Source: an uncultured Verrucomicrobiae bacterium (GTDB taxonomy: Bacteria > Chlamydiota > Chlamydiia > Chlamydiales > Rhabdochlamydiaceae). From it: a stretch of DNA of 64,000 bases. Location: assembly GCA_963818965.1 (NCBI GenBank), contig CAWFUG010000011.1:256001-320000 (forward strand), given 5' to 3'. The position numbers and the translations under genes are program-made. Shown here in pieces: positions 38,567-39,575 of the stretch; position 1 is the stretch's first letter; every line of letters begins with the position of its first letter. The notes beneath the pieces are model-generated. The model did not search any database, was not told the origin of the DNA, and saw nothing but the letters and a program-made list of their open reading frames with translations.

Positions 38567-39575
38567 TATTTTAGCGGTCGGCATCGACTTACTAGGCGGC
38601 GATACCCCTCCTGAGGAGCTCCTTGAGTCGATCCTCGCAGAAGCCCCTCTTTCTGTGCAGTTGGTCCTTTTTGGAACAGAGGCCCTTTTCAAAGGGCATA
38701 GCCCCTGTTCCGATCAGATTTCCCTTTATCCGGTGAAGGAGATTATCTCGATGGAGGAGTCTCCTTTAAAAGCAGTTCGAAAGAAAAAAGATTCTTCGAT
38801 CTGCGTAGGCGTGCGTTTGCTAAAAGAGAAGAAGATCCAGGCGCTGATCTCACTTGGAAACACAGGTGCTCTAATGGGGGCCGCTAAGTGGGAATTAGAT
38901 CCCCTACCCAATGTCGAGCGCCCCGCCCTTCTCACCCTCCTTCCGACGCGAAAGAACGATCTCGCCGTCATCGACGTCGGCGCCAACACCACTTGTAAGG
39001 CAAAGTACTTGGTCGAACACGCTACCGTCGCCGTCGCTTACCAAAAGAGCCGCGGCATCACAGCGCCTAGGGTAGGCCTTCTCAACATCGGCTGTGAATC
39101 CTGCAAGGGGACACCTGAGTTAAAAGAAGCCTATCAACAACTGAAAGCTTGGGAAAAAAACCACCCTTCCGCCTTTTCTTTTGCAGGAAATATCGAAGCG
39201 CGCGATGTGTTTCATGGAGAGATCGACGTCCTCGTTACCGATGGATTTACGGGGAATATCTTTCTGAAGACAGCCGAGGGAATCGCCGCAGTCGTTCTCG
39301 AACAGAGCTCTTCCGATGATCCCAAGCTATACCACAGCCAGCTTGAAACTTCGAATTCGATCGCGCCAAATTCGAAGTTTCAAGCGGGCTGTGGTATAGG
39401 ACAGCGGCTGCATTACACAGAATACCCAGGAGCGCTTCTCTGCGGTGTCGATGGAATCATCATCAAATGCCACGGCAACTCGAGCGCACAGAGTCTGATC
39501 CGCAGCATCGCCATTGCATCTGATTTGATCCAAAACAACTTCCTCGACCAAATCAAAAAGACACTGACACTATGA
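38529..39575 (+). CDS. plsX: Phosphate acyltransferase (start uncertain) with a 23 aa repeat-derived insertion
   Basis: GIDLLGGD, GNTGA, DVGAN, VTDGFTGN, KCHG. Confidence 0.93.
   Translation: MQVARWCTRRKDNILAVGIDLLGGDTPPEELLESILAEAPLSVQLVLFGTEALFKGHSPCSDQISLYPVKEIISMEESPLKAVRKKKDSSICVGVRLLKEKKIQALISLGNTGALMGAAKWELDPLPNVERPALLTLLPTRKNDLAVIDVGANTTCKAKYLVEHATVAVAYQKSRGITAPRVGLLNIGCESCKGTPELKEAYQQLKAWEKNHPSAFSFAGNIEARDVFHGEIDVLVTDGFTGNIFLKTAEGIAAVVLEQSSSDDPKLYHSQLETSNSIAPNSKFQAGCGIGQRLHYTEYPGALLCGVDGIIIKCHGNSSAQSLIRSIAIASDLIQNNFLDQIKKTLTL
39328..39398. mobile_element. TA-ended palindromic element inserted in frame in plsX
   Basis: tataccacagccagcttgaaacttcgaatt-cgatcgcgcca-aattcgaagtttcaagcgggctgtggtata; 71 bp including the duplicated TA. 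Confidence 0.9.

Follow-up and report, generated by a model that had tools for sequence, protein, structure and literature searches.

A short palindromic element of a multi-copy superfamily lies in frame within plsX of a chlamydial genome and resembles the Rickettsia palindromic elements

Introduction

For 25 years, palindromic elements that code for protein have stood as a peculiarity of Rickettsia. The Rickettsia palindromic elements (RPEs) are multi-copy short palindromes of roughly 150 bp that lie in frame in unrelated housekeeping genes (Ogata et al., 2000, 2002), as outlined in the accessible part of a 2024 review of MITEs (PMC10969869). According to the same part of that review, in-frame fusions are occasional for the intragenic ERIC and BOX elements, QMITE1 of Coxiella and the MITEs of Anabaena, and it is speculated there that other prokaryotes might behave like Rickettsia, chlamydiae being unmentioned in that part (PMC10969869).

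Here we analyze a palindrome within the plsX gene of a chlamydial genome, located in a stretch of 64,000 nucleotides (the window). As far as the RPEs are described in the part of the review cited above, they and the family reported here are both short multi-copy palindromes of an obligate intracellular host, a sizeable share of which lies in frame and adds peptide without breaking the protein, and neither has a known transposase. However, the host is a chlamydia here and Rickettsia, of a different phylum, for the RPEs; the present family, unlike the RPEs and compared with them by description only, is built from modules and ends clearly in TATAC...GTATA, with TA on either flank; and the plsX copy, with its 23 aa, is far shorter than the roughly 150-bp RPEs of the review. 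Because of the different host phylum, we treat the family as an RPE analogue. The RPE-like behaviour that an earlier note on this DNA had proposed was thus borne out in the sense of an analogue by description, with several in-frame copies, and not of a member of the RPE family.

Results

A palindrome within the plsX reading frame

The plsX coding sequence (38529..39575 of the window, + strand) comprises 348 codons in the ORF list, counted from the first ATG downstream of an L32-like ORF, and belongs to an open frame of 402 codons that opens at 38367 and includes the element in its frame. The small ORF upstream resembles ribosomal protein L32 by eye, and the plsX frame overlaps its end (38333-38566 of the window versus 38367-38529). 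Since the frame overlaps the upstream ORF and the Pfam match begins only at ORF residue 70, the plsX start is uncertain. The Pfam family FA_synthesis (PF02504) matches ORF residues 70-393 (E 1.6e-77), with profile positions 2-322 of 324 aligned in one stretch running across the insert, and the protein matches the solved structures 1vi1/6a1k at E 1.7e-54 and carries all 41 invariant columns of a 120-sequence alignment. Only one full-length plsX match was found in this genome, which is 87.85% complete, and a second plsX could sit in the missing part. Three public sequencing runs contain small shares of the stretch, with four short contigs covering 38959-39241 and 39420-39700, none of which reaches 39279-39401, where the insert lies. 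The gene remains whole, with the element most likely transcribed and translated.

Window positions 39327-39399 form a palindrome, and the repeat search delimited a left arm (39327..39357) and a right arm (39369..39399) of 31 nt each, 97% complementary with one mismatch, around a central 11-nt spacer, CGATCGCGCCA (39358..39368), that has diverged from the sequence at the middle of the other short copies, TGGCGCGGCC. The palindrome with 30-bp arms and one mismatch described in the earlier note is therefore real; the 30-nt arm as described there matches the window at two places only, one on each strand (0 and 1 mismatch), and no arm match arose in any of 100 shuffled sequences. The element itself is a short form of 71 bp including the TA at each end (39328..39398; like the arms and spacer, assigned to no strand), with a core TACC...GGTA of 67 bp (39330-39396). 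Its ends, TATACC...GGTATA, can be read directly in the sequence, as had been noted, and are flanked by C...G, so that excising the element with one TA yields CTAG. Folded as RNA, an 87-nt stretch reached -49.8 kcal/mol against a shuffle mean of -18.5 (z = -9.8), and none of 200 shuffles was as stable. At the gathering score, Rfam 15 returned no match, and below threshold only generic microRNA hairpin models appeared, the best with 44.8 bits against a cut-off of 100.

In the phase used by plsX the element contains no stop codon, and two of its three phases on each strand are stop-free. It gives the protein 23 codons (39330..39398, + strand), Y268-I290, whose translation, YHSQLETSNSIAPNSKFQAGCGI, agrees exactly with the peptide reported before. 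The conserved L-x-Y-x-E-Y-P-G motif follows the insert directly, also as reported, with L294, Y296, E298, Y299 and P300 at least 90% conserved and G301 invariant among the 120 sequences.

A multi-copy superfamily with a modular build

The genome searched comprises 2.24 Mb in 12 contigs. BLAST of 73 nt against it found three further full copies at 87-90% identity together with several half copies, and a 34-nt arm profile found 13 paired copies in size classes of 69-71, 83-84 and 167-168 bp as well as several solo arms. With an nhmmer profile of the 167-bp form, 81 loci were detected at E<=1e-3, making 82 with plsX, and since a looser scan with the terminal 18-mers marked 320 arm sites, the superfamily is larger than these 82 loci. 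The plsX palindrome is thus a multi-copy element with at least 82 related loci in its genome, contrary to the notion that it might have no related copies elsewhere.

Both TATAC...GTATA ends are present at 37 loci, with subfamilies differing in the bases after TATAC, and the lengths of these complete copies are 167 (16 copies), 170 (8), 168 (5), 84 (4), 169 (2), 173 (1) and 71 bp (1). The superfamily is modular, with cores of 67 bp, about 80 bp and 163-166 bp. Four short copies, plsX among them, run colinear with the outer portions of the long form (167 bp) and all lack the same central ~96 nt; therefore, the plsX copy with its 67-bp core is an internal-deletion derivative of the long form. As in MITEs, the elements are small (69-173 bp), numerous (82 loci) and devoid of transposase coding capacity, and they have terminal inverted repeats, the whole element being palindromic and 37 copies having the TATAC...GTATA termini.

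Three other superfamily members, assigned to no strand, lie in the window and were recognized by nhmmer: a copy of 172 bp with a TATACCCCGC-type end at 7378..7549 (E 9.9e-36 with the long-form profile), which no long open frame spans, a partial copy of 112 bp representing the inner module at 34392..34503 (E 3e-17), and a truncated copy of 87 bp with only a TATACTGCGC-type left end at 43570..43656 (E 1.7e-11).

Two further arrangements were seen elsewhere in the genome (coordinates as contig:position). A second short repeat, TATACCCCTTCCACCTCAATCG-like and with the same TATAC end, adjoins several copies (C9:378396-378420, C9:37061-37090, C12:91517-91545 and C8:378234-378270), which suggests that insertions were nested or chained, using the TA of elements already in place. 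Moreover, two solo arms of one subfamily face each other 25 kb apart, at C9:12036 (+ arm) and C9:37061 (- arm), and between them lie a full 167-bp copy at C9:28807 and very long ORFs with collagen-like G-x-T repeats, a layout that may stem from an old rearrangement between copies.

Beyond this genome, a BLAST-based search with the 167-bp form and its flanks gave matches in 36 of the 100 further genomes searched within the family, spread over 22 of 40 genera, this one counted, and related elements of 163-164 bp with the same ends are present in other genera. The exact degenerate arm pattern had no match in contigs of one genome per species, nor did the 167-bp form in a plasmid collection. In the literature covered, which excludes subscription journals, we found no paper describing miniature or palindromic elements from chlamydiae, and within that coverage the earlier description of the system as unreported stands.

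Putative TA target sites and net lengths in multiples of three

Complete copies bear TA at both ends, and together with the bases just outside, this TA often makes up CTAG (at plsX) or TTAA (at four copies); one TA is common to two abutting elements. No empty site was found, the nearest insert-free genome being only 59% identical in PlsX, and we infer, from the sequence of the copies, the insertion event, a TA target duplication on insertion and the exact 69-bp gain. The allele before insertion would read ...CCCAAGCTAGGACAG... without the element. IS630/Tc1-mariner elements and their MITEs duplicate a TA target, and IS630 prefers CTAG; the present family is like them in the TA at both ends of complete copies, with CTAG at the plsX site and TTAA at several others, but differs in that the genome yielded no match to a transposase of the DDE_3 or mariner type.

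Assuming TA duplication, the net gain is the length minus 2 (165 for 167, 168 for 170 and 69 for 71 bp). On this basis, the net length is a multiple of three in 26 of the 37 complete copies (binomial P 5e-6, the copies being non-independent, as they stem from few masters). The bias towards lengths of 3n that the earlier note had anticipated is present, but it is not confined to coding copies and includes intergenic ones; it lies in the lengths of the elements as such.

In-frame copies in other genes

At 14 loci, 15 open frames run across an element and extend for 40 codons or more to either side of it. Pfam was run on 12 of these frames, leaving aside PlsX, one of two frames that share a locus, and a locus with a solo arm where the gene starts after the arm. 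Domains lie on both sides of the element in three of the 12, an EPSP-synthase-family enzyme, a TRAM + U5-methyltransferase protein and an MsrA-MsrB protein; in the first of these genes the Pfam model resumes at position 213 of 417, six residues past the element. In three further frames, those of SulP, an LRR protein and an enolase-superfamily protein, a domain lies on one side, and in six of the 12 tested Pfam gave none. As with the RPEs, a palindromic repeat is in frame in several unrelated protein genes (PlsX, EPSP-synthase family, TRAM/U5-methyltransferase, MsrAB and SulP). The idea that selfish hairpins add segments to housekeeping genes is consistent with these other copies, which are predicted to extend the EPSP-synthase-family protein, the tRNA U5-methyltransferase, MsrAB and SulP.

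The copy in sulP lies at C9:100348-100514. In this gene (C9:99605-100801; locus L059), Pfam covers profile positions 1-236 of 380, all of them upstream of the element, and since the 95 codons after the element are without Pfam match, the gene may carry a further downstream defect.

Search for a mobilising enzyme

No match to the DDE_3, mariner, Y1 (RAYT) or rve transposase families was found in this genome at its 87.85% completeness, while a control search for Y1_Tnp gave matches in 6 of 14 genomes. An assignment to the REP/BIME elements with RAYT was rejected, because those palindromes measure 20-40 bp against 69-173 bp for the elements here and the genome has no Y1_Tnp match. DDE_Tnp_1 genes are present in four copies, three of them in 99.9%-identical insertion sequences of 1.2 kb (C1:260950, C2:149713 and C9:458112; loci L155-L157) and a fourth, more distant, at C9:267355. 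The three identical ones were dismissed as a parent, as their inverted ends (CTTTGTAC...) are unrelated to the element ends. A parent insertion sequence with matching ends, which a MITE assignment would call for, was thus not found in the 87.85% of the genome available, and the partner transposase could lie in the missing part.

No transposase-like ORF borders the solo arms. Terminal-arm pairs 0.3-4 kb apart number 36, and the most promising as an autonomous element, C4:10236-12633, was rejected, as it is a giant inverted repeat with 1.3-kb arms and two antitoxin-like HTH ORFs but no transposase. This giant inverted repeat (C4:10100-12760; locus L150) lies on a 22-kb contig of lower GC, has arms of 925, 214 and 135 nt that are 99-100% complementary, is bounded by element arms and has the antitoxin-like HTH ORF in duplicate; the assembly may have folded back here artificially, or the large palindrome may be real.

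PlsX of relatives and of a sister strain

As the earlier note had expected of the orthologues, the 23-aa segment is absent from PlsX of all 29 relatives and from all 118 more distant homologues, and only a sister strain with a 98%-identical protein has it. The best PlsX relatives are MAGs labelled Chlamydiia, Rhabdochlamydiaceae or Candidatus Rhabdochlamydia, which places the host among the environmental chlamydiae, in or near that family. However, the clean 23-aa gap that was also expected was not seen. Among 120 PlsX sequences the segment G251-L294 has a mode of 31 aa (86 sequences) and a range of 21-37 aa, save for two exceptions, this PlsX with 42 aa and the sister protein with 41 aa. This PlsX is therefore only 11 aa longer than the modal orthologue in the hairpin segment, because about 12 native hairpin residues, mainly from the start of the second hairpin helix, are missing. 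Without the insert the segment measures 19 aa, shorter than in any of the 118 homologues (minimum 21), so a simple history of insertion only is incomplete: either the lineage had a very short hairpin already, or native sequence was lost after insertion.

The sister protein, which comes from a different assembly, bears the same insert one residue shorter. It differs at eight positions, six of them at the element ends (K266N; AGCGIG to AAV-VR), and the downstream 58 residues are still in frame. The 'AVV' corresponds to GCTGTGGTA of the right end of the element read one base out of phase, which suggests small compensating deletions at that end in the sister strain. Such deletions, if they occurred, would imply selection for translation through the element.

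The insert at the tip of the PlsX hairpin

In an AlphaFold2 model of PlsX built with the 120-sequence alignment (mean pLDDT 86.4, pTM 0.86) the core is confident, and the best Foldseek matches are the PlsX structures 1vi1, 6a1k and 1u7n (TM 0.77-0.86). The model has the PlsX fold, a Rossmann-like core with a protruding alpha-9/alpha-10 hairpin, with low confidence at the hairpin tip. In the match to the solved structures the insert aligns between the two long helices of the hairpin, and the model places it at the tip as a helix (265-273), a loop (274-281) and a second helix (282-294), at pLDDT 50-67. The position near the tip of the helical hairpin proposed earlier thus agrees with both the alignment and, at that confidence, the predicted structure.

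In other bacteria, PlsY is the membrane partner of PlsX and receives acyl-phosphate from it. PlsY (PF02660) was not found in this genome, at 87.85% completeness; across the 31 genomes searched, this one and 30 relatives, it exceeded the family cut-off in one, with the hit at a contig end, and a second match fell below the cut-off. Of 41 genomes of the group, 37 gave a match for PlsX itself. In these chlamydiae PlsX appears to have been retained in the absence of the partner it normally has at the membrane, and it may work in a different context here. In Bacillus subtilis PlsX, according to the part of the published account available, hydrophobic residues at the alpha-9/alpha-10 hairpin tip are required for membrane binding and normal growth (PMC10146087); the insert is polar, though aligned to this membrane-binding stretch. 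Because PlsY was not found and the hairpin length is variable in the clade, the constraint on the tip may be relaxed, which would account for the variable length as well as for the insert being tolerated.

Discussion

Based on these findings, we propose that the plsX palindrome is very probably a short, internally deleted, MITE-like, non-autonomous element that was inserted in frame in the DNA for the PlsX hairpin and is translated and tolerated. The element would have inserted at the TA inside a CTAG of plsX, within the DNA for the protruding alpha-helical hairpin, where the 67-bp core and one duplicated TA would have added 69 bp and kept the frame. The 23-residue polar segment would now make up the hairpin tip, well away from the conserved core, and its presence would be harmless to the enzyme. 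As about 12 native hairpin residues are missing, the element peptide seems partly to replace the native tip and not merely to extend it.

This truncation also bears on the possibility that the insertion crippled PlsX, destroying the membrane-binding tip and leaving a weakened or decaying copy that is tolerated by a lineage not dependent on PlsX/PlsY. Such a loss would fit a polar insert at a site where the B. subtilis tip, in the available part of the account cited above, needs hydrophobic residues (PMC10146087), and PlsY not being found here and being above cut-off in only one of 31 genomes would agree with it as well. However, all 348 codons are open and all 41 invariant columns kept, the sister strain altered the element end yet kept the frame, and since PlsX is retained in 37 of 41 genomes though PlsY is missing, it appears to be needed; we therefore regard a crippled enzyme as improbable. 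Somewhat less probable still is that the hairpin acts mainly as RNA, a 31-bp stem in the mRNA that would be cut by RNase III or stall ribosomes and so tune or remove plsX expression. The genome encodes an RNase III and the predicted fold is very stable (-49.8 kcal/mol, z -9.8), but an untranslated stretch would be under no pressure to stay stop-free or to keep the frame after the changes in the sister strain, whereas the 3n lengths of the family and the in-frame copies in other genes fit translation. That no mobile insertion took place, with the segment being a lineage-specific hairpin expansion, palindromic by chance, or an assembly artefact, seems scarcely credible: although the hairpin segment varies from 21 to 37 aa among chlamydial PlsX proteins, near-identical copies stand at unrelated places of the genome, no shuffle reproduced the arm, and the same insert occurs in an independent assembly.

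Within the proposal of a tolerated mobile insertion, we tentatively consider a further step, which is possible but a good deal less likely than the insertion itself, namely that the element peptide was co-opted. After some 12 native residues had been lost, the arms would supply the tip and part of helix alpha-10 of a hairpin that elsewhere docks to the membrane, and the superfamily, with its net lengths of 165, 168 and 69 bp and its open phases, would consist of frame-neutral protein segments. If this were true, the family would be an independent parallel to the Rickettsia elements at the level of phyla and would supply core enzymes with new loops time and again.

The bacterial MITEs with in-frame fusions, as they are described in the accessible part of the MITE review (PMC10969869), share with this family the small size, the non-autonomous nature, the inverted-repeat ends, the multiple copies and the occasional reading through in a host ORF. 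The present family differs from them in that its commonest lengths are themselves, net, multiples of three and that several core genes have copies. The new points are the short form with its 67-bp core, an insertion site that is structurally defined, a native hairpin replaced in part, and the comparison with a second strain. The plsX case lends itself to testing, since the insert is short and the hairpin is known from B. subtilis in both structure and role, and the family provides a second system for asking how such elements move and why proteins tolerate them. A second, unrelated obligate intracellular lineage has the same habit, with related elements in about a third of the family genomes searched. 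Given the two unrelated lineages and this wide spread, we suggest that the habit may arise generally where mobile DNA exerts pressure on small genomes densely packed with genes.
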